From Clostridiales bacterium (GTDB taxonomy: Bacteria; Bacillota; Clostridia; Christensenellales; UBA1242), in assembly GCA_015055745.1 (NCBI GenBank), contig SVHS01000001.1, forward strand, positions 74,094 through 138,093: DNA of 64,000 bases. The letters are read 5' to 3'. Made by a program: the position numbers and the translations under genes. Below, one piece after another: positions 5,284-37,921 of the stretch. Each line of letters starts with the position of its first letter. The first letter of the stretch is position 1. Below the pieces are notes generated by a model, which was not told the origin of the DNA, ran no database searches, and saw only the letters and a list, made by a program, of their open reading frames with translations.

Positions 5284-6717
5284 ATGCAAAATATCATCAA
5301 TGGCAAGCATGTAGACGCTAGTGATAAGGCGACTATCAATATAGTCAATCCTTACACTGGTAGAAAGATAGACACTGTGCCAAATAGCACTCCAAAAGAT
5401 GTAAATCGCGCAGTAGAATGTGCAAAAAAGGCACAAAAATTGTGGGTAAAAGTGCCTGTCAGTAAAAAAGTAGAATTATTAAAGATTTTCTTGGGTGATG
5501 TCGATGAAAATAAAGATGATTTGGCTAAGACTCTCTCAAAAGAGACTGGTAAGCCTATCGCTCAAGCGTACGCAGAGATAGCTAATATACGTATTGGCTT
5601 TGAAGCGTTTATGGAAAAGGCAAAGCACCTATATGGCAATGTTATCCCAGCGGGTACAGAGGCTGGTCAGGATAAGACTATCCAGATGACTGTACGTGAG
5701 CCACTAGGTGTCATGGCTGCTATTATTCCGTTCAATTTCCCTTGTGATTTGTTTGACCAAAAGGTCGCTCCAGCTATCCTTGCTGGCAACACTATCATAG
5801 TAAAGCCACCTCACCAAAATCCACTCACTCTTATCAAGCTAGTGGAATTGATGCATCAAGCTGGTGTGCCAAATGGTGTGGTGCAAGTAGTGACTGGTGA
5901 GGGTAAGGTTGGAGAGGCACTTGCAAAGCATCCTGATGTGCATGGTATTACATTTACAGGTTCTACTAGAGCTGGTGTGTCAGTGTATCAAAATGGTGCT
6001 TCACACTTGGCTCATGTGGGACTAGAGCTAGGAGGTAATGATGCGTTTATCGTATTGAGCGACGCGGATATCGACCTTGCTGTAGAAGAAATGGTCTGGG
6101 GTAGAATGTACAATACTGGACAAGTATGTTGTGCTAGCAAGAGATTTATCGTAGATAAGACTGTACTAAAGCAATTTGAGACAAAGGCTGTCGCTAGATT
6201 GAAAAAACTCGTAGTCGGCGACCCTATGAATAAAAAGACAGATATCGGTGTGTTGGTCACAAAACTTGCTTGCGAAAAAGCTATGGGACAGATCAAAAAT
6301 GTAGTAGCTCAGGGTGGTAAGATTTTATTAGGTGGCAAAGCAAATGGTGCTCAATTACTCCCTACTGTAATTACCAATATTCCAAAGACTGCTGATGTGG
6401 CAAAAGATGATGAAATCTTCGCTCCAGTAGTGAGTATTATCCCATGTGATGGAGTAGATGAAGCTGTAGAGATAGCTAATCAATCTAGCTATGGATTATC
6501 AGGCTGTGTATTTACTAGCGATATGAAGACTGCATTTGATGTATGTTCTAGATTGCAATGTGGTGGTACTGTTATCAATGGTGCTAGCTTCCATAGGAGT
6601 TTTGAGATGCCTTTTGGTGGATACAAACATTCTGGTATCGGTACAGAAGGAGTCATGACTACTTTCGAAGAAGTGACTAAGATAAAGACTATTACTTTAA
6701 AAAATATTTTAAGATAA
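5284..6717 (+). CDS. NAD(P)-dependent aldehyde dehydrogenase (SSADH-like)
   Basis: 477 aa; ALDH hallmarks FTGSTRAG, ELGGNDAFIV, catalytic Cys in GQVCCASKR; 8 nt after FIST gene. Confidence 0.9.
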   Translation: MQNIINGKHVDASDKATINIVNPYTGRKIDTVPNSTPKDVNRAVECAKKAQKLWVKVPVSKKVELLKIFLGDVDENKDDLAKTLSKETGKPIAQAYAEIANIRIGFEAFMEKAKHLYGNVIPAGTEAGQDKTIQMTVREPLGVMAAIIPFNFPCDLFDQKVAPAILAGNTIIVKPPHQNPLTLIKLVELMHQAGVPNGVVQVVTGEGKVGEALAKHPDVHGITFTGSTRAGVSVYQNGASHLAHVGLELGGNDAFIVLSDADIDLAVEEMVWGRMYNTGQVCCASKRFIVDKTVLKQFETKAVARLKKLVVGDPMNKKTDIGVLVTKLACEKAMGQIKNVVAQGGKILLGGKANGAQLLPTVITNIPKTADVAKDDEIFAPVVSIIPCDGVDEAVEIANQSSYGLSGCVFTSDMKTAFDVCSRLQCGGTVINGASFHRSFEMPFGGYKHSGIGTEGVMTTFEEVTKIKTITLKNILR

Positions 6718-6861: not shown

Positions 6862-7380
6862 ATGGCGACAAGGAAAACAGCTAGCAAGACTAGTAAAAAA
6901 GTAACATTTGATATTGACGTTGATTCGAAGTCTTCTAAAAAAATGTCTAGAAAAGCTAGTAAACAGCTCAAGAAAGTTAGCATTGGTGCTATTTGTATTG
7001 CTGTGTTGCTCTTGGTTGTGGGTGCGGTCGGCGGATATTTTGGTGTCAAGCTAATTAGTAAAAACGATTGCTTTGTATTGAATGGAAATGACGAATTGAC
7101 CCTCACTATAGGTCAATCATACACTGACCAAGGTATCACAGCAGTAGCGTTTGGCAAAGATGTATCTGATGATGTGATTATCGAGACCAATCTGACAAAA
7201 AATGATGACGGTACATACACTGCTACAGAGGAAGGTACATATTATATCACTTACAAAGTAAATCATTTTAAGTACAATAGTATATTTAAGGTACAGAAGA
7301 TCAGATTGGTAAGTTTTGTCGAGCCTAGCGTAGAGGAAGAAATGGAGGAGGATAGCGATGAAAAAGTCCAAGTTTCTTAA
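6862..7380 (+). CDS. membrane-anchored protein with small Ig-like ectodomain
   Basis: 172 aa; K/S-rich N-terminus, one TM helix, beta-rich domain (GTYTATEEGTYYITYKV), acidic tail; AAGGGGG RBS. Confidence 0.6.
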   Translation: MATRKTASKTSKKVTFDIDVDSKSSKKMSRKASKQLKKVSIGAICIAVLLLVVGAVGGYFGVKLISKNDCFVLNGNDELTLTIGQSYTDQGITAVAFGKDVSDDVIIETNLTKNDDGTYTATEEGTYYITYKVNHFKYNSIFKVQKIRLVSFVEPSVEEEMEEDSDEKVQVS

Positions 7381-8644
7381 TATCTTAATTTGTATCTTGG
7401 CGCTAGTGGTAGGTCTGGCTGGTGGCGCAGTAGGTGTCACTTATGCTACCATGCCAGATACAGAAGAGCTTATTGTCGGCGAAGAGACATATTATTCTTA
7501 CAATGATCATGGAGATATACAGACGGTCGAGCTTACAGGAGATGCGGGAGAGATGTCTATCCATTTCCTTGAGCTTGGCAATAAATATACAGGTGACTGT
7601 ACATACATCAAGATAGGAGATGTAGATATCCTTATTGACTGTGGCTCAAAGTCCAGCAGTATCTCTACAGTGAGTGCATATCTAGACAAGTATGTGACTG
7701 ATGATACCCTTGAGTATGTCATCGTCACTCATGCTCATCAGGACCATTATGCAGGTTTTGCTACTAGTGCCAAGATAGATAGTATATTTGATTTGTACAC
7801 TTGTGAAAAAATCATCACATTTGCTACTACCAATCAAAAAGCTAGCTCTACATATAGCGGAAACAATATCATATCATATGCTCCAGCTAGCAAGTCTGAG
7901 TCTACGATGTACAACAATTTCAATAGAGAATTAAATGCCGAAGTCAGCAATGGTGCTACTCATATCACAGTGGCTCAGATTTTGGCTGATGATATCACTT
8001 ATCCAGACGGTAAAATCGTACTTGATGCTACCAATAATGTCAATATGCAGATTTTGGATAGTAAATATTATTATGAAGAAGCAGAGAGTGAAAATGATTA
8101 CTCAGTATGCACTATGTTCAATTATGGCGAGAGATATTTCTTGATGACTGGAGACCTAGAGGAAGACGGAGAGGAGTCTCTAGTAAGTCTCAATCCTATA
8201 TTTACTGACCTTAAAAATGAATGTGTGGCTGGCACTAGAGAATACGGTGTAGAGCTATATAAGGCAGGTCATCATGGTAGCAAGACATCTTCTAGTGAGA
8301 TTTTGCTCGACCATATCCGTCCAAATGTGGTGGCAGTATGTTGTTGTGCAGGTAGTAGTGAGTATACTAAGACTGTAGATAATCAATTCCCTACTCAAGC
8401 TTTTATCACTCGTGTAGCTAAATGGACAGAAAATATCTATGTCACTACTATGTGTGTGGATTATAAAAATAATGAGTTCCAGTCAATGAATGGAAATATT
8501 GTCATAGTATCTACACAGACAAATGTGGGTATAAAGTGCTCAAACAATGATACAAAGCTTCGCTATACTGATTGGTTTAGTAAACTGGTGGTCGATGAGA
8601 CTGGTACCGAGCGACCAAATCGTGTCTGGCCATCAAATTCTTAA
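7358..8644 (+). CDS. membrane-anchored extracytoplasmic MBL-fold hydrolase (ComEC C-terminal-domain type)
   Basis: 428 aa; N-terminal TM anchor; HxHxDH motif (VTHAHQDHYAGF) and ComEC-like YKAGHHGSKTSSS; overlaps the upstream gene by 23 nt. Confidence 0.8.
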   Translation: MKKSKFLNILICILALVVGLAGGAVGVTYATMPDTEELIVGEETYYSYNDHGDIQTVELTGDAGEMSIHFLELGNKYTGDCTYIKIGDVDILIDCGSKSSSISTVSAYLDKYVTDDTLEYVIVTHAHQDHYAGFATSAKIDSIFDLYTCEKIITFATTNQKASSTYSGNNIISYAPASKSESTMYNNFNRELNAEVSNGATHITVAQILADDITYPDGKIVLDATNNVNMQILDSKYYYEEAESENDYSVCTMFNYGERYFLMTGDLEEDGEESLVSLNPIFTDLKNECVAGTREYGVELYKAGHHGSKTSSSEILLDHIRPNVVAVCCCAGSSEYTKTVDNQFPTQAFITRVAKWTENIYVTTMCVDYKNNEFQSMNGNIVIVSTQTNVGIKCSNNDTKLRYTDWFSKLVVDETGTERPNRVWPSNS

Positions 8645-8660
8645 CGCGCAGGTGTTATTA

Positions 8661-8690
8661 AAAAAAGGACTGAAGACAGTCCTTTTTCTT
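8661..8690. terminator. bidirectional intrinsic terminator
   Basis: A6-ggactg-aaga-cagtcc-T5: hairpin flanked by an A-run and a T-run. Confidence 0.75.
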
Positions 8691-8823: not shown

Positions 8824-9408
8824 CTAATCTTTTCTAGTAAAGAAATTTATAAATTTAGCAAACTTTAATGTAATATCGTTGGCGTGTTTGATAGCAAATC
8901 TCTTAAAAGCTGCTTTACCAAATATCGTGAGTCCTGCTATGATAGCTGATACTATAGAAGGTATCAGTATCGACAAAAAATCACCACCAGAGATAGCTAG
9001 TTTTACCAATATACTAGCACCAGCAGCACCTGACAAGATACCGCACACATCACCTATGACATCACAGCAGATAGAGGATACTTTATCTGCATTTTTGTTT
9101 AGGGCAATAGCTTGCTTGCTACCTTTGATTTTCCTCGCTGCCATAGCAGTAAAATGCTCGATATTGCTACTGGCTACTGCTAAGCCTAGCATATCAAACA
9201 ATACACTGATAAATATAAATACAAATATTATAATGATAGCTATAGCTACTACAGTGTCTTGTAGTATCAGTTCACTCAAGATACTAAACGTCAGAGAAAG
9301 AAAAATAGCCAAAAATAGTACCACTACTGGCCAAACCCATGCTTTTTGAGATTTTTGTCTGTGATTTTTTTGTTTCATATATAAAATGCTTAATGCATGA
9401 AAATTCAT
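8824..9408 (-). CDS. oapA: OapA-like (OLE-associated) four-TM membrane protein
   Basis: 194 aa (about 21 kDa); 4 predicted TM helices, basic loop ARKIKGSKQ, DxxxD motif (CCDVIGDVCG), basic C-terminus; directly downstream of the structured RNA; alternative start at 9378. Confidence 0.55.
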   Translation of the reverse strand: MNFHALSILYMKQKNHRQKSQKAWVWPVVVLFLAIFLSLTFSILSELILQDTVVAIAIIIIFVFIFISVLFDMLGLAVASSNIEHFTAMAARKIKGSKQAIALNKNADKVSSICCDVIGDVCGILSGAAGASILVKLAISGGDFLSILIPSIVSAIIAGLTIFGKAAFKRFAIKHANDITLKFAKFINFFTRKD

Positions 9409-9411
9409 ATT

Positions 9412-9984
9412 ACGAAGGCAACACTTTGAGTAAACCTTGCGGCATAAGGTTCGGTTGGATTTCCCAATTTTGCACTTTTCCGTTACCAGAAAAGCAGTTT
9501 CCTTTTACGCAAAACTTGCACCGAATCGCCACTGAGACCACACTATAATCCCCAAAGTGCCTCGACACGCGAACAGTCTAGAAGATTTCCTTGACAACAT
9601 TGACTAAGCTTATCTTTATTTTGCGGATAAAATTTCAAAAGCCACTCATTACTAGACTAGTACTACATCTAGATACTGAGTTCCCGCCTTATCCCGATTA
9701 GTCCACTCAAAGCAGGCTACTCTGTACACAACTTTCGTCGCATACAGGTTCTGTCCTTAGCGGTAATAGCGAATCTGATAATCCGTGTCTCACCCTCTAA
9801 GGTCTCCGCGATAATTGGGCTTATGTATGTATGCCATTACACACCACCCAAAAATCTTAACTCCCAGCACCAGCCCCAGTTTGGGCAACCAAAGCCAGCA
9901 CCAGAAACTTCATAGGTGTGCCAGCGATGCTTGTTTCAGCATCCTCGATTAGTCTAGTTGACTAGAATACTGCACCTTCGTGAT
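9412..9984 (-). ncRNA. ole: large structured ncRNA, candidate OLE (ornate large extremophilic) RNA
   Basis: ~570 nt with no credible ORF; GC clearly above flanks; own promoter; ends closed by ACGAAGG/CCUUCGU; many hairpins including an 11-bp stem with a GAAA tetraloop (9722-9747); immediately upstream of the oapA-like gene. Confidence 0.6.
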
Positions 9985-9990
9985 AATAGT

Positions 9991-10019
9991 ATATTAGCAT
10001 ACTTAAGACAAAATGTCAA
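9991..10019 (-). promoter_or_regulatory. sigma-A-type promoter of the large ncRNA
   Basis: Minus strand: TTGACA (10019-10014), 17-nt spacer, TAATAT (9996-9991); predicted TSS about 9984. Confidence 0.65.
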
Positions 10020-10153: not shown

Positions 10154-10182
10154 TTGCTTTTTCACGTTTATTTTGTTATTAT
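10154..10182 (+). promoter_or_regulatory. promoter of the beta-helix lipoprotein gene
   Basis: TTGCTT, 17-nt spacer, TG-n-TATTAT (extended -10). Confidence 0.5.
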
Positions 10183-10216
10183 CATTACAACAAATCCAAG
10201 TGTAAGGGGGGATTAT

Positions 10217-12412
10217 ATGAAAAAATTTAAAATTGCTATTTGTGCTTTGCTAGTATTATGTAGTAGTTTTATCTTTGCTGCGTGTGGCGAAGATAAAAAG
10301 GATTTTGATGTTAGCAAGATCGTAGCAGATCAGACAAAAGAGTTTGTCTATGATAGCACAGCTAAGACTGTGTCTGTAAACTATCCTGATGTAGATTTTG
10401 AGGTGGAGTATGCACTCGAGTCAGATAAGTATAACTATATGTCAGCTAGTGAGCTAAATATGGTAGACGCAGGTACATACAAAGTTTATTACAAATTGAC
10501 TGCTGATGGGTACAATGACTACATTTCTCCAGAAGAAAAAGTCATCACTGTCAAGATTGCTCCAAAGCCTGTGACTGTAAATATATTTGACAATCTATAT
10601 TTCAAGAGTAAAGGATCACCTATCAATATTCGAGATAAAAAGACAGGAGTGGTAAATAATGATAATTTAGGTATCACATATACTGTAAAGAAAGAAAATG
10701 GTGATGAGATCAATACTGCTACTGCTCAGCTTGGTGAAGTATATGATATCATAGGTAGCTGGACAAATACAAACTATGCTGTCACATTTACACCAGCTAA
10801 ATTGAAAGTGACTGAAGCTGTCGAAGTAGTAAAAGGTAATACTACTACATATTATTCAGACTTTACTACAGCTGTATCTGAGGCATTGAGTGGCTCTATT
10901 ATCAAATTGAATGATAATGTTCGTTTGACTAGTCAGTTGACTATCGATAAATCTATCACTATTGATGGTCAAGACAAGTTTGTGATGTATGCAAGTTCAG
11001 AATATACTGATGATCAAATGATATTATTGAATAACACTAGTGCTACACTAGAGCTAAAAAATATCACTGTAGATGCAAAGAATAAAGCAAGAGTTATCAA
11101 GGCTAGTGCTGGTACTCTAAAGATAGAAGAAGGTACTACCATTACTAATGGTAAATCTAATAGTTTTGTAGGTGGTGTGTTTATTACACAAAAAGCTAAC
11201 TTCATGATGAACGGTGGCTCTATCACAGGAAACTCATATGTAGGTGCTACTGAGAATGATGAGTACTACAAGATTTACAGTACAGACTTGTGGATTGGTG
11301 CTAATGCAACAGGTACATATGCTTCTGTCAATGCAGGATACGTAGGTAATGCTTATGTAAATTCTAATGAATACAGTGCGTATGGTGCTGGTAAATTTAC
11401 AATAGAAGCTGGCGTGATAGATAATCTATATGTAGAATATGATGCTGGATTTGGTGCCAAATTTGAGTATAAGAATGGTACTGTAAATAATCTAATGGTG
11501 TCTACTACTGTATCTGGAGAATATGTGACTCTAGAAGTAGTAGAAGGTCAAGAAAAGACATACAATGGTGGTATTATCGGTACTATCACTACTGATGGTG
11601 TAGTACATGAGTTTACTAGTCCTGCGGATTTGATTGCTTATGCTACAGAGCACCCTACAGACTATAGAAAAGCATATCTAGCAGATGAGACTAATTTCAG
11701 AGCATATGCTCATCTTGTAAATGAAGTAGTATTGATCGGTGATCTTGAATTGTCTGAAATGTATACATTTACTACTAGTGCTGTCATCAATGGTCAAGAT
11801 AAATATACAATCTCAGCTAGTGATTCATTTACTGGTAATCAAATGTTCTTGGTACAAGGTACTAATCCAGAAGTGGTATTAAAAGATGTCACTTTAGATG
11901 GTAATCAAAAGACAAGAGTAATTAGAGCAGAGGCTGGTAAATTGGTAGTCGATGGTGCTACTATTACTGGAGGTATGTCTGCTTCATACATTGGTGGTGT
12001 ATATATCACATATAGTGCAAGCTTTGAGATGATAAGTGGCTCTATCACAGGAAACTCTTATGTAGGTGCTACTGAAACTGATGAGTACTACAAGATTTAC
12101 AGTACAGACTTGTGGATTGGCTCAAATGCTTCTGGTACTATGGCTGCTATCAATGGTGGTGAAGTGGGTAATATGTTTGTCAATTCAAACTCTTACAGTG
12201 CACAAAATGATCCAGATCATGTATCATTCGTGATGAACAATGGTGAAGTGGATAATGTGTATGTAGAGTATGATGAATATGGAGCTAAGTTTGTGTTTGT
12301 AGGTGGTAATATTGATAATATGTACTTGTCTACTACTACAGCTGGTACTTATGAGACTATCGACACAGTCACTGCAGGTACATATGTAGGTGGTGAAGGA
12401 GAAGTAGCTTAA
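10217..12412 (+). CDS. surface lipoprotein with MBG-like N-terminal domains and a duplicated right-handed beta-helix module
   Basis: Start chosen at MKKFKIAICALLVLCSSFIFAAC-GEDKK (lipobox) behind an AAGGGGGG RBS; two ~330-aa paralogous halves (..GQDK..ITGNSYVGATE.DEYYKIYSTDLWIG..). Confidence 0.8.
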   Translation: MKKFKIAICALLVLCSSFIFAACGEDKKDFDVSKIVADQTKEFVYDSTAKTVSVNYPDVDFEVEYALESDKYNYMSASELNMVDAGTYKVYYKLTADGYNDYISPEEKVITVKIAPKPVTVNIFDNLYFKSKGSPINIRDKKTGVVNNDNLGITYTVKKENGDEINTATAQLGEVYDIIGSWTNTNYAVTFTPAKLKVTEAVEVVKGNTTTYYSDFTTAVSEALSGSIIKLNDNVRLTSQLTIDKSITIDGQDKFVMYASSEYTDDQMILLNNTSATLELKNITVDAKNKARVIKASAGTLKIEEGTTITNGKSNSFVGGVFITQKANFMMNGGSITGNSYVGATENDEYYKIYSTDLWIGANATGTYASVNAGYVGNAYVNSNEYSAYGAGKFTIEAGVIDNLYVEYDAGFGAKFEYKNGTVNNLMVSTTVSGEYVTLEVVEGQEKTYNGGIIGTITTDGVVHEFTSPADLIAYATEHPTDYRKAYLADETNFRAYAHLVNEVVLIGDLELSEMYTFTTSAVINGQDKYTISASDSFTGNQMFLVQGTNPEVVLKDVTLDGNQKTRVIRAEAGKLVVDGATITGGMSASYIGGVYITYSASFEMISGSITGNSYVGATETDEYYKIYSTDLWIGSNASGTMAAINGGEVGNMFVNSNSYSAQNDPDHVSFVMNNGEVDNVYVEYDEYGAKFVFVGGNIDNMYLSTTTAGTYETIDTVTAGTYVGGEGEVA

Positions 12413-12446
12413 TAAAAAAACGGTGTTTGATTACACCGTTTTTTTA
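12413..12446. terminator. bidirectional intrinsic terminator
   Basis: A7-cggtgt-ttgatt-acaccg-T7 between convergent genes. Confidence 0.8.
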
Positions 12447-13190
12447 TATCAATAACAATATTAGGCTCAATATTACGAGATAAATGCTGAAGAAATAAAG
12501 TTTATTTTTCTTTACAGTCTTTAGCATAATCTTTATAGATAATATACCAAATATAAATGATGTCACCATGACTATAAATATACCTAACCAGTTTATTGTG
12601 ATTTGAGAGGAGAAAAGCTTTATGCATTCGTATACAGCACTAGCTATAATGATAGGTATGCTCATTAAGAATGAAAAGTCTAGCGCTTCTTCTTTATTTA
12701 CTCCTAACAGTAATCCACAGGCAAGTGTCGTACCACTACGAGAGATGCCGGGTAGCAATGCAAAGCCTTGAGACACTCCCATGATGAAGGCAGATTTTTT
12801 ATCCAAATATTTATTTTTCTCTTTTTTTAAGTCGGCGATGAGCAGTAGTATAGCAGAGGCCAAAAATCCCCATACAAGTGTGCTAGTATTGAAATTGTCT
12901 TCCAAAAAGTGATTGAATAATAGTACCATAATCACTGTAGGTATAGTAGCTATTATTAGATTGAGATTGGTCTTATTTTTTGGATAACGGACTAGCTCAG
13001 TGAGTCTGTTTTTATAGCAAAATATGACTGCAAAAAGCGTGCCGATGTGCGCCACTACGCTTAGCAGTAGTAGGTTGTCCAGCTCAAATAATGAGCCAAA
13101 TAAAACTATATGACCACTGCTAGATATGGGTAAAAATTCGGTCAATCCTTGAATAATTCCTATTAAAATATAGTTAAATATTGTTTTCAC
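12444..13190 (-). CDS. uppP: undecaprenyl-diphosphate phosphatase
   Basis: 248 aa polytopic; BacA signature QGLTEFLPISSSGH and PGISRSG; GTG start. Confidence 0.9.
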   Translation of the reverse strand: MKTIFNYILIGIIQGLTEFLPISSSGHIVLFGSLFELDNLLLLSVVAHIGTLFAVIFCYKNRLTELVRYPKNKTNLNLIIATIPTVIMVLLFNHFLEDNFNTSTLVWGFLASAILLLIADLKKEKNKYLDKKSAFIMGVSQGFALLPGISRSGTTLACGLLLGVNKEEALDFSFLMSIPIIIASAVYECIKLFSSQITINWLGIFIVMVTSFIFGILSIKIMLKTVKKNKLYFFSIYLVILSLILLLI

Positions 13191-28200: not shown

Positions 28201-28604
28201 TTTTCTATTTCTATGATGTTATATTCATTTATTTTGTCTAGAGATATGATATTTTTTTTAAAAGTCTCAATGTTTGGTACAAAAGAAAAAAGAATCCTTG
28301 GAGTAGATATGATGATAGGCGTGGATTTTGCGAGAAGATAACAAGCTTTTATTATATCTTTCAAATTTTCACTACTTTGAAATTTGGATAAAGTGAATGG
28401 CTTGTCAAAATCATCTATAGCGACACAAGTCTTGCCGAGTGCAGTGAGCTGGTCTCTCATCTGATGCACTTGCTCTAGATTTGGACAAATGTATAGTGCT
28501 CTATCTATCTTGCTAAGTATTGCACCTTGCTCACCTATACCAAGGTTATTGCAAAAAATTGTGTTTGTATTTATTTTTGATATTAGATCGTCGTATCTTG
28601 GCAT
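25263..28604 (-). CDS. mfd: transcription-repair coupling factor
   Basis: 1113 aa; CarD-like domain, SF2 helicase motifs GDVGFGKTEVA, DEEQRFG, TATPIPRT, TRG-type QLRGRVGR. Confidence 0.95.
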   Translation of the reverse strand: MPRYDDLISKINTNTIFCNNLGIGEQGAILSKIDRALYICPNLEQVHQMRDQLTALGKTCVAIDDFDKPFTLSKFQSSENLKDIIKACYLLAKSTPIIISTPRILFSFVPNIETFKKNIISLDKINEYNIIEIEKKLVYLGYKKVDSVIEAGEFARRGDILDIFTPIDDYPTRIDFFDSNIEEIYTYDNISFEKLTKLNQIDIVPNKITLFDSETKENILKNLNKLKIDDNLFFELYNLIERDEDIPLEFLYPFTDSIYTLKDIDLPIVIANAIQFESSCNNSYEYFTDKINQTFKKENLIKIYKNNEKILKINDFYINFAKNLIFFDNFDLKNTDLQIKFNTKNIINFDFKSIKFPSFLYNLESLQIELNKYKNKQIYLCLSSQETLGSIKRIFSETNIPFSLNVNSTGIILTDLNIPYNICFEDEDKIYIGSSNFAHKKEVKKEKKQTIKYLPKAGEYVVHSTHGIAKCEGLVTVSVSGVDKEYFKLSYRGGDILYVPYENADCLSLYMAEGNAVTTNKLGGKEFSNLKQKAIKSIEDMSEELLELYAKRKAAKGYVYPEDDYLYTEFENAFEYTETDDQLQAIADIKRDMTSGKVMDRLICGDVGFGKTEVAMRALFKAVESGKQVAVLAPTTILSLQHYMTAQKRTKDFGVNVKMLNRFVSTKEQKEILADLRSGKVNVICGTHRLLSKDVVFDDLGLLILDEEQRFGVKAKEQIKQIKNNVNVLTLSATPIPRTLSMSLMSIRDISIINTPPVDRLPVKTYVMGYNEDIVVNAINDEINRGGQVLIVYNNVEQLPILCNRLREKLGNDKAVFDIAHGQMSEVALENAIKRLYDKETNVFVSTTLIENGVDLPSANTLIVIDSDRLGLSQSYQLRGRVGRNKEQAYAYFTYNKEKILTEESTSRLQALAENTELGSGFKIAMRDLQIRGAGELLGKIQHGHIIKIGYDMYTKLLNETLRKLKGEKVNIEREIKMDIAISSKIPYTFVADESERLKIIAKISNIDSKETARATISALLNEYGKLPKEIYQLCNISLLKALGIKHNIKHITITKAKMSIVFYDDIDIKKLMTKVTKSHFKFEKGIVPTIVLDTNFYNVQNAMNYFIEFLSV

Positions 28605-29113
28605 AAATCACCTGCGATAAATTGCTCTATTAATACACTAGCTTTTTCATAAGCTTCTTGCATAGTGGCTTTACTAGTAGGATCCAAAGTAGACAAGACA
28701 TAATCTCGAAGGGGTATATTTTCATCTCTGCCGATACCTATCCTTAGACGAGGGGTAATACCTACTTTATTTACGATATCTCTAAGTCCATTGTGAGTAC
28801 CAGCGCTACCCTCCATACGATAACGAATCTTGCCTTTAGGTAGGTCGATGTCGTCCAATATAATCATGATGTCACTCAGTGCGATCTTAAAATACTTGCG
28901 CAATTCTTGCACACTGTCTCCGCTAAGATTCATATATGTGTTTGGCTTCGCGATGATATAGCCGTCGCCTTTGCAAATCTCAGCACGACACTTTGTAGTG
29001 GTGAACTTTAGACCATTTTTCTTCACAAAAAAATCCACTGCATTAAATCCAGTGTTGTGATAAGTGTTTGTATATTTACCCTCAGGGTTTCCCAATCCTA
29101 CTATTAACTTCAT
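28583..29113 (-). CDS. pth: peptidyl-tRNA hydrolase
   Basis: 176 aa; LIVGLGNPG-type start, THNGLRD-like motif (GTHNGLRDI); overlaps the mfd start by 22 nt. Confidence 0.95.
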   Translation of the reverse strand: MKLIVGLGNPEGKYTNTYHNTGFNAVDFFVKKNGLKFTTTKCRAEICKGDGYIIAKPNTYMNLSGDSVQELRKYFKIALSDIMIILDDIDLPKGKIRYRMEGSAGTHNGLRDIVNKVGITPRLRIGIGRDENIPLRDYVLSTLDPTSKATMQEAYEKASVLIEQFIAGDLCQDTTI

Positions 29114-30700: not shown

Positions 30701-32629
30701 ATGAGTATGAAAATTTTATCACCTGCTGGAGATTTTGAGAGTCTTAAGCAGGCTGTATACAATGGAGCAGATGAAGTATATCTCGGAGTAAAAGATTTCA
30801 ATGCAAGAAACATTGAAGGTTTTTCGCTAGCTACATTGAAAGAAGCGGTGGAGTTTGCGCATATTTATGATGTAAAAGTGCATTTGACGGTGAATATTCT
30901 TTTTAGTGATGAAGAGATGCAATCTGCTTTGGACCTAATAGTCGATGCATACAATCTTGGTGTAGATGCGTTTATTATCCAAGATATAGGGCTGATGAGT
31001 ATAGTGCATGAGTATTATCCTGAGATAGAGATACACGCTAGTACGCAGATGGGTATACATAATCTCGAGGGTGTGAGGCAGGTAGAGAAGCTAGGTGCAA
31101 AGCGTGTAGTACTATCGCGCGAGACACCACTCGAAGAAGTGGCGAGGATTAGAGCAAATAGTGATATAGAGATAGAGTACTTTGCTCAAGGGGCGTTGTG
31201 TGTGAGTTTTTCTGGAAATTGCTACCTAAGCTCTTATCTTCATGATGCTAGCGGGAATAGGGGAAAGTGTAAGCAATTATGCAGATTGCCATATGCTTTC
31301 AAATATGAAGATAAAGAAATTGCAAATGGATATTTACTCAGCGCGAAAGATATCTGTATGTTAGATAGATTGGAAGATTTAGAAAAAGCAGGAGTGACAG
31401 CTCTTAAGATAGAGGGTAGAGCGAGACGACCGTATTATGTAGGAGTGGCTACCAAAATTTATCGCAAGGCTCTAAATGGTGAAGATTTTGACATAGATGA
31501 GCTGAGATTGGCATTCAATCGAGGGTATACGGCGGGATATTTTGATGGAAATGGTGATATTATTTCCAATAGACAAAATCATATCGGTATAGAGATAGGT
31601 AGGGTAGAAAAATTTGTCAAAGGCAAAAAATTTAATGAGATATTTATATCTAGCGATCGTGAAATTACGCCAAAATCCACTATTAAATTTATTTATAACA
31701 ACGAAGAGATTACAATATCTGCTTATGATATCTCTAGGAGAGGAGGCTTATATCGTATCACTACTATGCAAACTGTAGAAGTGGGAGCAAAAGCATATAT
31801 TATCTCAGATTTTATGCGAGAAGAAGAGATGAAAAAATTTGTTTTTCGTAGACCTGTAGAAATCTCTATCTTGGCAAAAATCGGCGAGCCAATACGCGCA
31901 GAAATTAGTCTGAAAAATCACGAAATAATAATAGAAGGTGATGTATGTGAGGAGGCTAAAAATCAGCCTCTGACAGAAAAAGATTTCATTGACAATTTCC
32001 GCAAAAGTGAGCTGTTTGATGCGATATTGTATTGTGATATAAATGCTGTCTTTATGCCGAAAAAGAGTCTTAATGATTTTAGGCGAAAAGTATATGATAT
32101 CATCAAAAATGAATTGATAAAAACAGATAGAAATCTATTGAATAAAATATCTCTTCCAAAGTACAAGGAGATAGAAGAGATAGATAGTGCTTTAGATCTT
32201 TATATTCCTGAAGTTTATAATGAAATAGATATTGTGAAAAACAAAGATAAGATATTGTATTTGCCGATATTCGCTACCACACATGATGTGGAAATGCTAA
32301 AGCAAATTGTGGAAAAAAATAAAATCCCAGTACTTGTAAATAACTTGTATGCATTAGATTTTGATACTGAGAAATATATCGGTGGCGGTATGAATGTCTA
32401 CAATGGGTATACGGCGCAATACTTTGGGCGTCCATATTTTCGAGCTGAGGGAGGAGAGTATCAGATGCCATATATGACACTACGTCACTGTCCTATGAAG
32501 CAACATTTGGGAGCAGACTGTGTTCATTGTCCTTATCGCGAAGGCTACGAATATGTTATGCCAAATGGTAAAAGAATGAAACTCAAGAGATCCAAGATGT
32601 CATCATGTACATTTTATTTGACGAACTAA
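30701..32629 (+). CDS. U32-family peptidase-like protein (RlhA/TrhP/PrtC family)
   Basis: 642 aa; N-terminus MKILSPAGDFESLKQAVYNGADEVYLG typical of U32; conserved E..ALCVSFSGNC region; Cys-rich C-terminus; the family-typical start would be ATG at 30707. Confidence 0.85.
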   Translation: MSMKILSPAGDFESLKQAVYNGADEVYLGVKDFNARNIEGFSLATLKEAVEFAHIYDVKVHLTVNILFSDEEMQSALDLIVDAYNLGVDAFIIQDIGLMSIVHEYYPEIEIHASTQMGIHNLEGVRQVEKLGAKRVVLSRETPLEEVARIRANSDIEIEYFAQGALCVSFSGNCYLSSYLHDASGNRGKCKQLCRLPYAFKYEDKEIANGYLLSAKDICMLDRLEDLEKAGVTALKIEGRARRPYYVGVATKIYRKALNGEDFDIDELRLAFNRGYTAGYFDGNGDIISNRQNHIGIEIGRVEKFVKGKKFNEIFISSDREITPKSTIKFIYNNEEITISAYDISRRGGLYRITTMQTVEVGAKAYIISDFMREEEMKKFVFRRPVEISILAKIGEPIRAEISLKNHEIIIEGDVCEEAKNQPLTEKDFIDNFRKSELFDAILYCDINAVFMPKKSLNDFRRKVYDIIKNELIKTDRNLLNKISLPKYKEIEEIDSALDLYIPEVYNEIDIVKNKDKILYLPIFATTHDVEMLKQIVEKNKIPVLVNNLYALDFDTEKYIGGGMNVYNGYTAQYFGRPYFRAEGGEYQMPYMTLRHCPMKQHLGADCVHCPYREGYEYVMPNGKRMKLKRSKMSSCTFYLTN

Positions 32630-32779: not shown

Positions 32780-32856
32780 TGGTTGCGGGAGTTGGATTTG
32801 AACCAACGACCTTCGGGTTATGAGCCCGACGAGCTTCCGAGCTGCTCTATCCCGCG
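32780..32856 (-). tRNA. initiator tRNA-fMet (CAU)
   Basis: 77 nt, CGCGGGATAGAGCAGCTCGGAAGCTCGTCGGGCTCATAACCCGAAGGTCGTTGGTTCAAATCCAACTCCCGCAACCA. C1:A72 mismatch, three G-C pairs in the anticodon stem, CAU anticodon, encoded CCA. Near-identical to the E. coli tRNA-fMet core as I remember it. Confidence 0.95.
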
Positions 32857-32866
32857 CTGTGATATA

Positions 32867-32895
32867 TTATTACCATATTATTATTGATTTGTCAA
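32867..32895 (-). promoter_or_regulatory. tRNA-fMet promoter
   Basis: Minus strand: TTGACA (32895-32890), 17-nt spacer, TAATAA (32872-32867), about 10 nt before the mature 5' end. Confidence 0.55.
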
Positions 32896-33029
32896 TAAAA
32901 TTCTAAAAATTTATCGAAAAATTTTCAAGTTTATATAAAATTTTATATTTTTTTGGATAATTTGGTATATTCTCCTGGTAATGTTATTTGTCACATTGAA
33001 AAGAGAGCTTATTTTCGTATCAAATAAGT

Positions 33030-33058
33030 TTGACAAAAGATGTCGAATGTAATACAAT
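33030..33058 (+). promoter_or_regulatory. promoter of the small membrane protein gene
   Basis: TTGACA, 17-nt spacer, TACAAT; GGAGG RBS downstream. Confidence 0.55.
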
Positions 33059-33078
33059 TAATTTGGAGGAAGGGAAAT

Positions 33079-33444
33079 ATGGCATATATTTTGACAGTAA
33101 AAAAATACAAAAAGTTAGATGAACAAAAAACACAGCAATTACAGCAAATCTACAATGAGCTTTCTAGTGAAGATCAGACAAATGTCGTAAAGCAAGGTAA
33201 AAAAGTAAAAAATATATCTTTGTTTTGCTCAGGATTATTTTCACTTGCATTGATTGTGTTTGGCATTGTAGGTATTTTCTTACCAGATATCGGCACAATT
33301 ATGGGTATCGTCATCATGTTGTGTTCTATACCGACATTGTGGTATTTTTATTGCGCTATGACATGGAACAAAGTAGAGCCTTATGAATATTTGCGTTTGA
33401 TTGGGTCTCAAAAAGTGCAAGCTATCATATCTAAAGAAAACTAA
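33079..33444 (+). CDS. small two-TM membrane protein, unknown function
   Basis: 121 aa from the ATG behind GGAGGAAGGG; Q/K-rich N-terminus then two hydrophobic helices. Confidence 0.55.
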   Translation: MAYILTVKKYKKLDEQKTQQLQQIYNELSSEDQTNVVKQGKKVKNISLFCSGLFSLALIVFGIVGIFLPDIGTIMGIVIMLCSIPTLWYFYCAMTWNKVEPYEYLRLIGSQKVQAIISKEN

Positions 33445-33445
33445 A

Positions 33446-33478
33446 ACAAAAAAACTAGCATTACGCTAGTTTTTTTTC
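33446..33478. terminator. bidirectional intrinsic terminator
   Basis: A-run-actagc-attac-gctagt-T7 between convergent genes. Confidence 0.8.
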
Positions 33479-35488
33479 TTAAAACAAATCATCGTCATCA
33501 TCTTGGTCATCGCCAGATTTGCTTGCCATGACTGTATTACGATTTTTGATATCGTAGTATACTTTGTCTTCATCAAACATTCTTCTTTGGATATATGTGC
33601 CTTGTACTTGAGTAAGGTCATAACATTTTGCTTTATATGCTGGTGTGATGACTGTCTTCAATGCGGCATTTGGAGTAAATGTCTTGATGATAAGCTGACC
33701 CTTATCTCTAAATGACATCAATTCTTCTGGATAAGCGATAGGGATAGACTGGGTCTGCTTGCTGGTGGATTTTGTTTCTTTTCCGTCTGGACCAGTACTC
33801 TTATTTTCGCTAGTGATTTCGATAGTCTTTTTACCGAGTAGTTCACTAAATTCTTTATTGGTAGTCATATCTTCTGATGCGACATATACTTGGATAGGAC
33901 AGTTATCTTTGATGATTTTACCTTCGTCTTGACCATAATTTTGGTATAGCTGAGAGTAAGATTGTACGCATAGAGTAAAGAATATACCACGGCTACGACC
34001 TACTGCCATACTTGAACCAAACTCAGGGAATTTTGGCATATTACCAAATTCATCTAGCATAAAGTACACATTACGTTTTAGTCTGCCGCCTTTGCCTTGA
34101 GCCTTGTCCACTAGTCTCTTGTATAGCTGAGTGACGAATAGTATCGCCAATGGATATCTTGTACGTATCTCATCTGGAATAATAAGGAATATAGCTGTAG
34201 GTTGCTCATCTATGCAAGTAAAGTCTACCTCTGTATGGCTGGTCATAAAGCTGATGCCTGCGTCACTAAATAGAGCCATCATACCTGTAGCAAATCCCAT
34301 GTAGTTTTTAGTAGTATTTTCGGCATTTTGTAGAGCTGTAGATGCTAGGTCAGGTACTTTACTAAACTTGTCTCTATAGTCAAATAGATATTTCTTTAGA
34401 GTAGCGTAAGTATCTCTGCCGCTATCTGTCATGTTTACTATTTTATATACATTATATAGATTGTATTTGTCTCTAGTCATACCGAGCTCTGGGATAAGAC
34501 TATCTTCTAGCATTGCCAACATGATGGCGTGTAATAGTCTTCTAGCGGTCTTTTCCCAGCTTGGGTCTTTTGCACTTTCTACTGGTGCTAGTGTATTACA
34601 GATGTCTCCTAGAGCTGAGTAAGTCTCATCTTGGAGTGCCTTAGATGTCACACGCATATCGTTTTCTAGCACTTGCCTATCTACATATGCTGTGCCGTTA
34701 AATTCAAACCAAGTATTTGCATCATGGTCAAATGCTCTTTGGATAATAAGGTTATAATTTTTAGGGTTGTCGCCAGCAGGGTGTACACGCACTTCTTTTT
34801 CTAGATTGAAGCTTCTATGATAAGTGTCGTAAGGATAGGTGAGTGGATTCCACTGCATAGACATAGATGGATTACGAAGGTCTAATACTTTTACATCATA
34901 GCCCTCTTTTTTCAATTTATTTGAGCATGTATTGTACAGCTCACCTTTTGGGTCTGTGATCACAAATGAAGGTTTTGAAGCTGTCATGCTCATGAGCTGT
35001 AGAGTAGGGATAACGAATCTCCAAGTCTTACCAGAAGAGGTAGTACCGACTACTAATGTATGGATAGGCTCTACAAAGTTTATATCCATATGTGCGCCTT
35101 TTTCTTCTGCGCGCACTAGTATACCGTCTTTTTTGCTAGACTTTAAGGAAGATAGAGTGTTGTAATTAAATGATTTGTTTTTCTTTAGATCGTCGTCAGT
35201 GACAAAGTCTTTGTCGAAAAATTGTTGCGTGTCCTTGCCCTTGCTGTCCTTTACCTTGTCGAAGCTGACACTTTTTTTCTTCTTGCCATTCAATAGACTG
35301 ATTAGATCAAATATCAATAAGAAACCTAATGCAAAGAATGTCACTACGGCTGGCCACATTGTACCAAAATACTTAGGATTAGGAGCCCAGCTACCTTCAT
35401 TGAAATAAGTACATAATACGACAGTACCCAAAAAGGCTACTAGACCGATAATGATATACTTTAGTGCTACCTTAAAAAAACTCTTCAT
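33479..35488 (-). CDS. type IV coupling protein (VirD4/TraG family ATPase)
   Basis: 669 aa; two N-terminal TM helices; Walker A VVGTTSSGKTW; Walker B VYFMLDEFGNMPKF; CVQSYSQL motif; acidic DDQDDDDD tail. Confidence 0.85.
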   Translation of the reverse strand: MKSFFKVALKYIIIGLVAFLGTVVLCTYFNEGSWAPNPKYFGTMWPAVVTFFALGFLLIFDLISLLNGKKKKSVSFDKVKDSKGKDTQQFFDKDFVTDDDLKKNKSFNYNTLSSLKSSKKDGILVRAEEKGAHMDINFVEPIHTLVVGTTSSGKTWRFVIPTLQLMSMTASKPSFVITDPKGELYNTCSNKLKKEGYDVKVLDLRNPSMSMQWNPLTYPYDTYHRSFNLEKEVRVHPAGDNPKNYNLIIQRAFDHDANTWFEFNGTAYVDRQVLENDMRVTSKALQDETYSALGDICNTLAPVESAKDPSWEKTARRLLHAIMLAMLEDSLIPELGMTRDKYNLYNVYKIVNMTDSGRDTYATLKKYLFDYRDKFSKVPDLASTALQNAENTTKNYMGFATGMMALFSDAGISFMTSHTEVDFTCIDEQPTAIFLIIPDEIRTRYPLAILFVTQLYKRLVDKAQGKGGRLKRNVYFMLDEFGNMPKFPEFGSSMAVGRSRGIFFTLCVQSYSQLYQNYGQDEGKIIKDNCPIQVYVASEDMTTNKEFSELLGKKTIEITSENKSTGPDGKETKSTSKQTQSIPIAYPEELMSFRDKGQLIIKTFTPNAALKTVITPAYKAKCYDLTQVQGTYIQRRMFDEDKVYYDIKNRNTVMASKSGDDQDDDDDLF

Positions 35489-35672
35489 ATCAAACCTCGC
35501 GATTAATATGCTTTATTCTAATACATTTAGTTAAATCTGTCAAATATTTTATTGGATTATTGTATAAATTATCTTTATGATACAAAGAATAAGGATATAT
35601 ATTATAAAGGAAAGCAAAAAATAATTAATTATTAAAAAAATAAAAAAATTTCAAAAAAACATATAAAATTAG

Positions 35673-35701
35673 TTGATTTTAATTTTTTAACTTGATAATA
35701 T
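35673..35701 (+). promoter_or_regulatory. promoter of the T4SS structural-gene operon
   Basis: TTGATT, 17-nt spacer, TAATAT; divergent from the coupling-protein gene. Confidence 0.55.
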
Positions 35702-35715
35702 ATTGTCATGATTTA

Positions 35716-35736
35716 GCACAAAATATCGTTTTGTGC
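35716..35736 (+). promoter_or_regulatory. perfect 8-bp inverted repeat at the predicted 5' end of the T4SS transcript
   Basis: GCACAAAA-tatcg-TTTTGTGC, located between the predicted TSS (about 35708) and the RBS (AAGGGGG). Confidence 0.5.
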
Positions 35737-35754
35737 AATATAAGGGGGAATTTT

Positions 35755-36081
35755 ATGAATATGAATACTATGATGTTGGCTCCAGCATGGTTGACCACAT
35801 TGACTACGACTCTTAAAAATATTGTAAATCCTATTTTGGGCGTGGTAGCTTTAGTGGGTGTTATTTATGCTATTTGGGTTGGTGTCAAGTTTGTTAAGGC
35901 TGATAGTAAAGAAGAGCGTGAAGAGGCTAAAGCTAAGCTTATCTCAGTGATCATCGGTATAGTAGTGACTGGTGTATTGATTGCTTTATTCTACTGGTTG
36001 TCATGGATGTTTGAAAATGGCAAATTCGGTTTCGATAGTGCTATTCCTACAGAAATGATCGGATACTTCCTTCATAAGTAA
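35755..36081 (+). CDS. VirB2/TrbC-like small membrane protein (pilin-like T4SS component)
   Basis: 108 aa from the ATG behind AAGGGGG; signal-like N-terminus plus two hydrophobic helices separated by a charged loop (KADSKEEREEAKAK); position in the T4SS cluster. Confidence 0.5.
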   Translation: MNMNTMMLAPAWLTTLTTTLKNIVNPILGVVALVGVIYAIWVGVKFVKADSKEEREEAKAKLISVIIGIVVTGVLIALFYWLSWMFENGKFGFDSAIPTEMIGYFLHK

Positions 36082-36084
36082 AAT

Positions 36085-36108
36085 AAGAGAGCTTGGGCTC
36101 TCTTTTTT
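36085..36108 (+). terminator. intrinsic terminator (possibly an attenuating, intra-cluster one)
   Basis: gagagc-ttgg-gctctc followed by T6. Confidence 0.7.
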
Positions 36109-36200
36109 GTCATCATGAGCACTCCATGTCATCCTGAGAGAGTGAAGCGATTCGAAGGATCTCATAGATTCTTCGACGCACTTCGTTTGCTCAGAATAAC
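36109..36200 (+). repeat. hairpin-type intergenic repeat, copy B
   Basis: gtcatcatgagc partial head, then gtcatcctgag...ttcgaaggatctcatagattcttcg...ctcagaataac; homologous to 8737-8812. Confidence 0.7.
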
Positions 36201-36365
36201 ATATGTATTTGCTGTGTATGTTATATTAATCTCAATATTCTCAAAAAACTCTTTATATTTGTTTGTTTTTTATTAAAAATTTTGTTAAAATAAATAATAA
36301 TATTTGATATTATTAATTAATTTGTAGATTTTAGCAGACAATAAATAAAAGGAGGGGAGATATTT

Positions 36366-37859
36366 ATGGCTGATGAAGAAAATCAAATACCAGAAGGTCA
36401 AGAAACTCAAGCATCACCTCAGGGCGATCATCAGTCCCCTCTTTTAGCACGATTGCAAGAGAATGCTGATATGCGTAAGGGAAATAAGACAAAGTCAAAG
36501 CTTGAGACCATACGAGAGCGCCTCTCTAGAAGTAAATCTCCTACTTTAAAATTTTTTGAAAAGCGTACAGTAAATAAAGCAAAAGCATTTGCTAAGCCAT
36601 CTCGAGATAGAAAAGACTCGGCAAAAGTCAGTGCATTAAAAAAGAATATCAACAGCATTTTATGGCAGATAAATGTCTTAACAAAGGCTAATGTTCCACC
36701 TACAGTATCCAAAGGTATATCTATGACTCCTGCGCTATTTTGGATATGTGTCATTGCGCTAGGTATCCTTATAGTAGCTGGTTTGGTTTTGAGTATAGCT
36801 GACGCTCTAGGTGAGTCTGATGATACCCCAAATGCCCCAGCTCAAAGTGCTCTCGGTATTACTGGTGATGATTTTTACGGGGCGAGATTTGTATATCGTG
36901 ATGCTACGCTAGCTAGAGAATCTATCATAGAGGATATCGTAGATATAGTAGACCAGGGTATTGCTACAGCTGAGGGTATTACTACTATTACCAAGGATAG
37001 CACGACATACGATGTCACTATAGATGTGTCTATAGCTGTGCCTGATGAAGACTACTCATATTCGGGTTTTGATGAGACAAGCTTTGGTTCTGACTATCCT
37101 ACATTGTATCCAATAGTTAAAGATATAGCGAAGTCAGTATATATGGTGGACAATTCTATAGAGCCTGCTAGTGAAAATCTAGTAGATATAGTAGACGGTA
37201 TCAAATATTTTGGCTTTAATGCTGATATCATGACATATGTATCTAGCGATATAGCTACATTGATAAATAATAATGTTACATTCACTTCTACAAACAATAC
37301 AGACCTTACTCTAGCTGATGTGCAGGCAAAAGTGTCTAGCGATATATCTAATATATACACTGATGCTAAATATACCACTAGGACAGAGAAGGTGTTTATA
37401 CAAGACAATATATTAGATGCGGAAGAAGATACGTTGTCCGTTGCTAGGAAGCAATATATTGCTATGATATTTATGCCAAAGACAGATGTGAAGTTTACAT
37501 ATTTTTCATTTGTCGTGAGTGGTGCCGATTTTAATACATTTAGCATGGACATAAGACATGGCAATGATTTAATAAATGTAGAGAAAGATGAAGAAAGTCT
37601 GAGCTCTAGCGAAGAGAAATATTTATACTATGCAGAAAATGTCTCAGTAAATGCTAGTAAATATGAGTTTATTGATGAAAATAATCTTACAGCGTTGAGC
37701 GAAGGTATGTCTCTATACGATATCTTGGCACTTAGTAATCATTCAATGTATTTAGACAATACAAGTCGTATAGTGACCTACAGAGCAGACGGTGTCACAG
37801 TAAGTATGAATAATACAAATGTTATTAGATTTGTAGAATTCTCTACAGATTGGAAATAA
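36366..37859 (+). CDS. bitopic membrane protein of the T4SS cluster, unknown function
   Basis: 497 aa; ~120-aa basic cytoplasmic N-terminus, single TM (ALFWICVIALGILIVAGLVLSI), ~350-aa acidic ectodomain; AGGAGGGGAG RBS. Confidence 0.6.
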   Translation: MADEENQIPEGQETQASPQGDHQSPLLARLQENADMRKGNKTKSKLETIRERLSRSKSPTLKFFEKRTVNKAKAFAKPSRDRKDSAKVSALKKNINSILWQINVLTKANVPPTVSKGISMTPALFWICVIALGILIVAGLVLSIADALGESDDTPNAPAQSALGITGDDFYGARFVYRDATLARESIIEDIVDIVDQGIATAEGITTITKDSTTYDVTIDVSIAVPDEDYSYSGFDETSFGSDYPTLYPIVKDIAKSVYMVDNSIEPASENLVDIVDGIKYFGFNADIMTYVSSDIATLINNNVTFTSTNNTDLTLADVQAKVSSDISNIYTDAKYTTRTEKVFIQDNILDAEEDTLSVARKQYIAMIFMPKTDVKFTYFSFVVSGADFNTFSMDIRHGNDLINVEKDEESLSSSEEKYLYYAENVSVNASKYEFIDENNLTALSEGMSLYDILALSNHSMYLDNTSRIVTYRADGVTVSMNNTNVIRFVEFSTDWK

Positions 37860-37921
37860 ACAGCAAAAATATTTGATAATTTTAGATAAAAATTATATAA
37901 TTCAGATAAAACGGAGGATTT

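Follow-up and report, generated by a model that had tools for sequence, protein, structure and literature searches.

The 64,000-nucleotide (nt) stretch analysed here (the window; positions 74,094 to 138,093 of contig SVHS01000001.1 from a Clostridiales bacterium) carries on its minus strand a structured element of 570 nt that is followed by a small gene, and from covariance-model and protein comparisons it is clear that the two are a genuine OLE RNA and its oapA partner, members of a known family. Among conserved bacterial RNAs of undetermined biochemical role, OLE is one of the largest, and what its particles do biochemically is not understood even in the model organism H. halodurans. Nothing contradicts the identification, and the segment 8655-10019 is almost certainly a complete ole-oapA transcription unit. 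Its parts are given below in the direction of transcription (aa, amino acids; SD, Shine-Dalgarno sequence; P, helix number of the RNA).

9991-10019, minus strand: sigma-70-type promoter TTGACA-17-(TG)cTAATAT, with an inferred start at about 9984, 3 nt before P1
9412-9981, minus strand: OLE RNA from P1 5′ strand to P1 3′ strand, 570 nt (Rfam envelope 9399-9994)
9975-9981, minus strand: P1 5′ strand ACGAAGG, pairing with 9412-9418
9962-9973, minus strand: 5′ strand GCAG..UCUAG of a long-range helix, containing a CUAG palindrome, with its partner CUAGACUGU near 9569-9577
9517-9519, minus strand: site of the missing P13 hairpin (the OapB docking site), where three bases, GCA, join P12.2 to P14
9475-9494, minus strand: hairpin CUUUUC-UGGUAACG-GAAAAG with a GUAA tetraloop, the equivalent of the published P14.1
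9412-9418, minus strand: P1 3′ strand CCUUCGU, pairing with 9975-9981 (complementarity and covariation)
9379-9411, minus strand: A/U-rich spacer of 33 nt between P1 and oapA, with no SD and a weak 4-bp palindromic hairpin at 9398-9386
8824-9378, minus strand: oapA, 184 aa, start ATG at 9378 (an in-frame ATG at 9408 is probably unused)
9049-9063, minus strand: codons of the DxxxD motif, D106-V-I-G-D110 in the 184-aa numbering, with invariant aspartates
8655-8690, minus strand: bidirectional intrinsic terminator AAAAAGGACUG-UCUU-CAGUCCUUUUU plus U-run, shared with a convergent MBL-fold gene

Identity and fold of the RNA and its partner protein

The whole window was scanned against all 4227 families of Rfam 15 at the curated gathering thresholds, and only two matches were returned, OLE and a tRNA (32856..32783). 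The RF01071 (OLE) match lies at 9994-9399 on the minus strand, scores 364.3 bits (cut-off 50; E 1.9e-103) and spans model positions 1-616 of 616 without truncation, so the OLE candidate put forward in an initial annotation of this DNA is upheld at full length. That annotation had proposed ROOL, GOLLD, RNase P and tmRNA models as controls; since all four are in Rfam, the same scan serves for them, and no other RNA family reaches threshold here. It had also remarked on a GC-rich stretch with no credible open reading frame (ORF), and both points hold, as ORFs in 9409-9990 encode only 45-69 aa and the GC content is 0.42-0.49 across 9400-9999, the spacer upstream having 0.18-0.29 and the beginning of the oapA ORF 0.30-0.35.

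Relatives were collected by one scan of GTDB species genomes with the oapA product, which gave 42 loci (designated by L and a number), all from uncultured gut or rumen Clostridia; their sources include Candidatus Onthoplasma, ‘Christensenella sp.’ UBA metagenome-assembled genomes (MAGs), Candidatus Stercoripulliclostridium, Faecousia and Ruminococcus bicirculans. When the window RNA was used as an nhmmer query, an OLE homologue was found directly upstream of the oapA relative and on the same strand in 36 of these 42 loci, and Rfam confirms OLE in 10 of the 12 related loci tested (298-425 bits). As for the six without an upstream homologue, the contig ends just upstream in L006, L015 and L029, no nhmmer match is present in the 2.7 kb upstream of the oapA relative in L036, and the remaining two are L035 and L042. 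OLE RNAs are found in anaerobic or extremophilic Bacillota, and the present host falls among them through its relatives (gut Clostridia MAGs such as Candidatus Onthoplasma, Christensenellales); the window further encodes SpoVT and YabP, proteins that spore-forming Bacillota typically have.

L035 (Ruminococcus bicirculans, 6001-6504) and L042 (5251-5784) encode OapA homologues that keep CCDVIGDICG, with no OLE detectable by Rfam within about 6 kb on either side. In the loop between transmembrane (TM) helices 2 and 3 they have lost the conserved AMA-x-[RK]K motif and are more acidic (for example, KAERENDKG). With these sequence traits, the two may represent OapA paralogues that act independently of OLE or at a distance from it.

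The fold was checked on an alignment of 30 homologous RNAs from uncultured gut Clostridia, in which about 150 columns are invariant. RNAalifold predicted 152 pairs from this alignment, and compensatory changes are seen in 100 of these. The independent Rfam consensus structure was also mapped onto it, P1 and the long-range helix GCAG..UCUAG/CUAGACUGU were then added, and the pairing partners were moved by 1-3 columns to give slid controls. The mapped structure has standard pairs in 84.6% of cells (40-44% in the slid controls), both-side changes in 114 of 167 pairs (57-66 in the controls) and a covariation score of 0.421 (0.08-0.12 in the controls), and none of 500 shuffles reached the observed measures. 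The same helices, the closing P1 and the same invariant nucleotides are present in the OLE RNAs of Halalkalibacterium (Bacillus) halodurans and Clostridium acetobutylicum.

The closing 5′/3′ helix that the initial annotation had recognized is supported by complementarity as well as by covariation across relatives. P1 (helix 1) is 93.7% paired with five of its eight pairs changed on both sides. The window's clade has GAAGG/CCUUC and most others have GGUGG/CCACC; L017 and L034 share GACGG/CCGUC, and L039 and L040 share GAUGG/CCAUC. The long-range helix (helices 2-3) is more than 99% paired; in L007, L017, L034, L039 and L040 it shows exchanges of U-A for C-G and of G-C for U-A, and we infer by analogy that it corresponds to the published P2 OapA-site region (PMC12265935).

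Six internal hairpins had been proposed as well, and four of them match Rfam OLE helices, namely the 11-bp GAAA-capped stem at 9747-9722, GAUGCU/AGCAUC, UUUGG/CCAAA and CUUUUC/GAAAAG. Support from the alignment is good for three of these, with 81-94% of cells paired, and weak for GAUGCU/AGCAUC (42% in the Rfam-mapped register), which shows compensatory changes nonetheless. The other two proposals, UCUAG/CUAGA (9953-9966) and AACCUU/AAGGUU (9433-9451), were not accepted, because they show no compensatory change among the 30 homologues (one is paired in only 54% of cells) and both occupy bases that belong to covarying long-range helices.

On protein comparison, the gene that follows the RNA is oapA. 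By BLASTP its product aligns with the OapA of Kretsch et al. 2025 (Supplementary Table 4) at 31% identity over 175 aa (E 6e-26), the two sharing the block F-x-AMA...KG-x-KQA...C-x-DVIGD-x-x-GI-x-SG, and in a 43-sequence alignment D62, G65, D106, V107, D110, S116 and G117 are invariant. The invariant aspartates include both of the DxxxD motif, which has been described as distinctive of OapA and is absent from CNNM domains (PMC11332333). The initial annotation was thus right to call this protein OapA, and the traits it had listed, a DxxxD motif (CCDVIGDVCG), a basic loop and four TM helices, are confirmed by the alignment, the hydropathy profile and the long hydrophobic helices of an AlphaFold2 (AF2) model.

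Only CNNM is a credible Pfam match of the product, at a marginal 33.7 bits (cut-off 28.4), the sole other match being a sub-threshold DUF6594 (17 bits), and such a marginal CNNM match is the behaviour described for OapA (PMC11332333). No NCBIfam model recognizes the product, for which only spurious sub-threshold matches were returned. The AF2 model (mean pLDDT 79, pTM 0.70) places its long hydrophobic helices at residues 15-39, 44-70, 97-128 and 135-164, in agreement with the hydropathy segments, with short connecting helices beside them. Foldseek comparison of the model with the PDB gave MtCorB (7m1t/7m1u; probability 1.00, TM-score 0.49-0.57) and the CorC TM domain (7cfg; TMq 0.53) as its best matches, and the same top structural matches have been reported for H. 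halodurans OapA (PMC11332333). A sequence search of the PDB found no solved OapA, the best being weak CorB matches (7m1t and 7m1u, E 0.075).

The window protein thus has the attributes of a known OapA, including the DxxxD motif, four predicted TM helices, a basic TM2-TM3 loop, a CNNM-like fold with CorB as the best structural match, and the lack of CBS or CorC domains. It differs from known OapA in being slightly shorter, in its Lys/Arg-rich N-terminal tail and in the lack of an SD before its gene. The CNNM-family Mg2+ transporters MpfA, CorB and CorC, whose presence anticorrelates with OLE across genomes (PMC11332333), would share the TM-domain fold as judged from the model, but they have three TM helices together with CBS-pair and CorC domains, and have neither DxxxD nor an RNA partner.

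As in H. halodurans and C. acetobutylicum, oapA stands immediately downstream of the RNA and on the same strand, the commonest though not universal neighbour of OLE. The initial annotation had made it a 194-aa ORF beginning 3 nt past the RNA. Such an ORF does exist, but its ATG at 9408 is not conserved, being out of frame or absent in L001, L002, L004 and L009, whereas the start context uauauAUGAAAcaa is conserved in these four loci and corresponds to ATG 9378, which the gene callers also use. Homologues in a collection of 5.8 billion proteins are almost all 184-185 aa long, one being 100% identical over 184 aa, and the identical 184-aa protein is encoded on eight metagenome contigs, next to the same MBL-fold gene. 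With the start at 9378, the distance from the end of P1 to oapA is therefore 33 nt, not 3. For genome annotation, the locus points to an RNA gene that would escape pipelines centred on proteins, and the comparison corrects the start codon of oapA.

Transcription signals of the pair

The minus-strand promoter proposed in the initial annotation (TTGACA, 17 nt, TAATAT) is also borne out, the site being conserved upstream of P1 across relatives. In the window it scores 10/12 and is one of four that tie for the top regional score, and it alone of the four has a perfect TTGACA and a TG-extended −10 element. Promoter-like matches are common in this AT-rich DNA (15 were found versus 8.2 expected), so that a single match proves little. 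Across the homologous loci, a −10 element stands 2-28 nt upstream of P1 in all 32 that were scored, TG-extended in 28 of them, and scores of at least 9/12 were reached in 24 of the 32 loci versus 9 of 128 control windows.

A dedicated promoter just upstream of P1 is likewise found in H. halodurans, where a proximal promoter has been shown experimentally, with the start site at the beginning of P1 (PMC3413148). Since nearly all relatives examined also conserve it, a promoter of its own is a normal OLE feature and not, as the initial annotation had it, a departure from the canonical setting; what is unusual at this locus is only its isolation from co-directional neighbours. At the other end of the unit, the terminator stem (8662-8687) folds as a 13-bp hairpin in a −35.7 kcal/mol structure (z = −3.0).

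In the spacer between P1 and oapA, a small palindromic hairpin occurs 8-10 nt before the start codon in five species (the window, L001, L002, L004 and L009), and its sequence differs among them (AUGC/GCAU, AGCU/AGCU, GUGC/GCAC, CAAUUG/CAAUUG). Considered as a possible terminator or processing signal, it is weak, and its predicted folding energies (−2 to −5 kcal/mol, z about 0) do not stand out from those of shuffled sequence.

This arrangement bears on the possibility that the OLE-fold element acts mainly in cis, as a long structured 5′ leader that controls the translation or stability of oapA, and not as a separate stable RNA. One promoter serves both OLE and oapA, the 33-nt spacer holds a weak hairpin and no convincing terminator, and the lack of an SD, correctly read in the initial annotation (duplex energy +0.4 kcal/mol), means that oapA translation could depend on the structure upstream. 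About one third of the window genes are likewise without an SD, several of them looking leaderless, so its absence at oapA is not special. In H. halodurans, moreover, OLE runs as one band of about 600 nt, is abundant and very stable, and works in a particle together with OapA (PMC3413148). Two relatives carry a clear intrinsic terminator, GGCACUUGGUGCC plus U-run, between OLE and oapA (about 5935-5990 in L010 and 5885-5945 in L011), followed by an AAAGGAG SD and a GTG start; to judge from these signals, OLE is probably released there by termination, with read-through into oapA, and the RNA would be made as a separate product. A predominantly cis-acting leader therefore seems improbable to us.

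Loss of the P13 hairpin

The most distinctive feature of the locus, missed by the initial annotation, is the complete absence of P13. In the window, 21 RF01071 model positions after the P12.2 5′ strand are replaced by 2 nt, and the junction reads GGU-GCA-AGUUUUGC, as it does in L001, L002, L003, L004 and L009. Unlike the OLE RNAs of H. halodurans and C. acetobutylicum, in which P13 has a GNRA loop and a one-base bulge, the four-way junction here becomes a three-way junction. L005, L007, L010 and L011 have 5-7 unpaired nucleotides at this site and no hairpin, and most of the remaining loci have a hairpin of 20-24 nt with a GNRA loop (GUAA, GCAA, GUGA and others). The GNRA tetraloop and single-base bulge of P13, which are needed for high-affinity OapB binding in H. 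halodurans (PMC7936274), are therefore both missing from the window RNA. This does not disqualify it as an OLE RNA, since P13-deficient OLE RNAs have been described (PMC11332333).

Two such groups are known from uncultured gut bacteria, the source of the window RNA as well. Variant 1 (TANB77-type) often lacks the P13 tip and has short P7-P9, variant 2 (RF39-type) lacks P7 and P8 (Fernando & Breaker 2024, PMC11332333), and OapB and OapC are largely missing from both gut clades (PMC11332333). Like variant 1, the window RNA is without the OapB-binding nucleotides of P13; unlike variant 1, it has lost all of P13 and not the tip only. The helices that we equate with P7, P8 and P9, following the numbering of PMC9723947 and PMC11332333, measure 48, 26 and 101 nt against 44, 29 and 98 consensus positions in the Rfam alignment, so that neither the shortened P7, P8 and P9 of variant 1 nor the absence of P7 and P8 in variant 2 is seen. 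With these hairpins at about consensus length, the aligned RNA is full length except for a clean loss of P13.

From the missing docking site, the OLE particle here is probably assembled without OapB at P13. The P14.1-equivalent hairpin (helix 22) is 91.8% paired, with seven of nine pairs covarying; P14.1 is a weak secondary OapB site in vitro (PMC7936274). At the other helper-protein site, UGAAG and GAGUUAAG (J4a/5 and J5/6), which form the OapC/bS21 kink-turn in H. halodurans OLE, are carried by the window RNA and are invariant or nearly so among the 30 aligned RNAs, and this conservation suggests that the OapC/bS21 kink-turn site is kept. A tblastn search of the window with the published OapC and bS21 (RpsU) gave no match, which for only 64 kb says little, and Pfam scans of essentially all ORFs in these same 64 kb found no L7Ae or KOW protein, no search with an oapB sequence being made. 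The copy thus keeps every conserved core nucleotide and oapA and is without the whole OapB-docking hairpin, which makes it a clean natural variant, and its comparison with close P13-containing relatives could help to define the minimal particle.

Genomic setting and a possible minimal module

The neighbouring genes of the pair are as follows.

10217-12412, plus strand: lipoprotein gene on the upstream flank, divergent from OLE
7358-8644, opposite strand to oapA: MBL/ComEC-like (MBL-fold) gene on the downstream flank, convergent

As both flanks lie on the opposite strand, the pair must be transcribed on its own, and the initial description of a stand-alone unit between unrelated neighbours (an MBL hydrolase and a lipoprotein) is correct. 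The arrangement is repeated in L001 and L004, and in part in L002 and L003; in L009 the ole-oapA pair (5407-6546) is inverted relative to window 8824-9981 between the same flanks, with the MBL-fold gene on one side and uppP-ychF on the other. The distant relatives, by comparison, have co-directional neighbours in 18 of 22 loci, with xseA or ispA upstream and dxs, tlyA or nadK downstream in those scanned. The canonical isoprenoid/DNA-repair context named in the initial annotation is therefore real, and takes the form xseA/ispA-OLE-oapA-dxs/tlyA in these distant relatives.

On this synteny, the pair has left its usual cluster in the small clade of the window, whereas the OLE of H. halodurans and C. 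acetobutylicum, in cultured extremophile hosts and not in uncultured gut Clostridia, lies in an xseA-xseB-ispA...dxs-tlyA cluster. P13 was probably lost before the relocation, because L005, L007, L010 and L011 are also without it and a 394-397-aa gene stands upstream of OLE in all four, which is xseA in L011 by domain scan and of the same size in the other three. The pair hence behaves as an autonomous unit, here with no linkage to the isoprenoid/DNA-repair genes that are usually cited as functional clues.

One may ask whether an RNA that has left its native cluster and lost P13 is simply a decaying relic. The P13 deletion itself and the Rfam scores, 331-364 bits in the window's clade against about 400-425 bits in P13-containing relatives, would fit with this. 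Yet the highly conserved OLE positions (the roughly 150 invariant columns of the 30 sequences) are all kept, the helices stay paired via compensatory changes within the clade, and oapA with its invariant motif, the promoter and the terminator are intact; moreover, at least six species-level genomes have retained the form without P13, and the hairpin is also absent from four others that are probably still in the canonical context. A non-functional relic is accordingly very unlikely. The chance that the element belongs to another large RNA class (ROOL, GOLLD, RNase P, tmRNA, a group I or II intron or a riboswitch leader), for which nothing speaks beyond size and GC enrichment, is negligible, being refuted by the 4227-family scan in which OLE and one tRNA were the only matches.

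Taken together, the locus is best explained as an ole-oapA unit in which a strong extended −10 promoter would direct transcription from about 3 nt before P1, and the first 570 nt of the transcript would fold into the OLE RNA, to be followed by the SD-less spacer, the oapA coding region and the bidirectional terminator. Between OLE and oapA there is no strong terminator or obvious processing signal, and OLE could stay attached to the oapA mRNA. In H. halodurans, OLE is bound by OapA dimers, which bring it to the membrane, and cells under alcohol, cold, Mg2+ or carbon-source stress require the particle; OapA is similar to CNNM Mg2+ transporters, and dimers of OLE are seen by cryo-EM (PMC12265935, PMC3413148, PMC10898510, PMC11332333). 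By analogy, the OapA encoded here would be a four-helix membrane protein that forms dimers and is akin to the CNNM/CorB Mg2+-transporter domain; it would bind OLE and keep it at the membrane, and the particle may aid in coping with short-chain alcohols, cold, excess Mg2+ and poor carbon sources. With P13 deleted, it would probably be assembled with no OapB docked there, and the pair of this clade would have moved from the isoprenoid/DNA-repair cluster to its present place between the MBL-fold gene and the lipoprotein/uppP region.

A further step is more tentative, and we hold it at slightly less than an even chance: that the clade carries a naturally minimized, self-contained module (own promoter, P13-less OLE, oapA and own terminator) that works without OapB, was excised from the ancestral isoprenoid/DNA-repair cluster, re-inserted beside uppP and later flipped in one lineage. 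The GUAA-capped P14.1 is kept in the window RNA, and the lost docking hairpin is the sole ground for independence from OapB. If such an OapB-free module does exist, the core functional particle would be OLE and OapA alone, and the linkage to the canonical cluster would be dispensable.

As regards the flanking genes, uppP (undecaprenyl-diphosphate phosphatase; 12444-13190, minus strand) is no more than two genes away from OLE in the window, L001, L002, L004 and L009, so that the relocated pair stands again beside a polyprenyl-lipid gene, which may be a coincidence. The divergent lipoprotein is encoded by ORF 10154-12412(+), with a likely start at an ATG near 10217 and a signal peptide MKKFKIAICALLVLCSSFIFAAC; it has no Pfam or NCBIfam match, and a segment of about 230 aa within it is duplicated in tandem (50% identity, E 3e-68).

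Elsewhere in the window, a 3412-aa ORF at 53453-63691(+) has no Pfam match at E values up to 1e-4. Four genes, at 28583-29113(−), 30701-32629(+), 45072-45986(−) and 50877-51761(−), lack an SD but carry a TATAAT-like box 6-7 nt ahead of their ATG, and look as if they give leaderless mRNAs. A type IV secretion/conjugation gene set (32783-43088) adjoins the tRNA gene (32783-32856, minus strand) and includes the following members.

33479-35488, minus strand: VirD4/TraG coupling protein
35692-36081: type IV secretion pilin
40344-43088: VirB4-like ATPase

This set is probably an integrated conjugative element.

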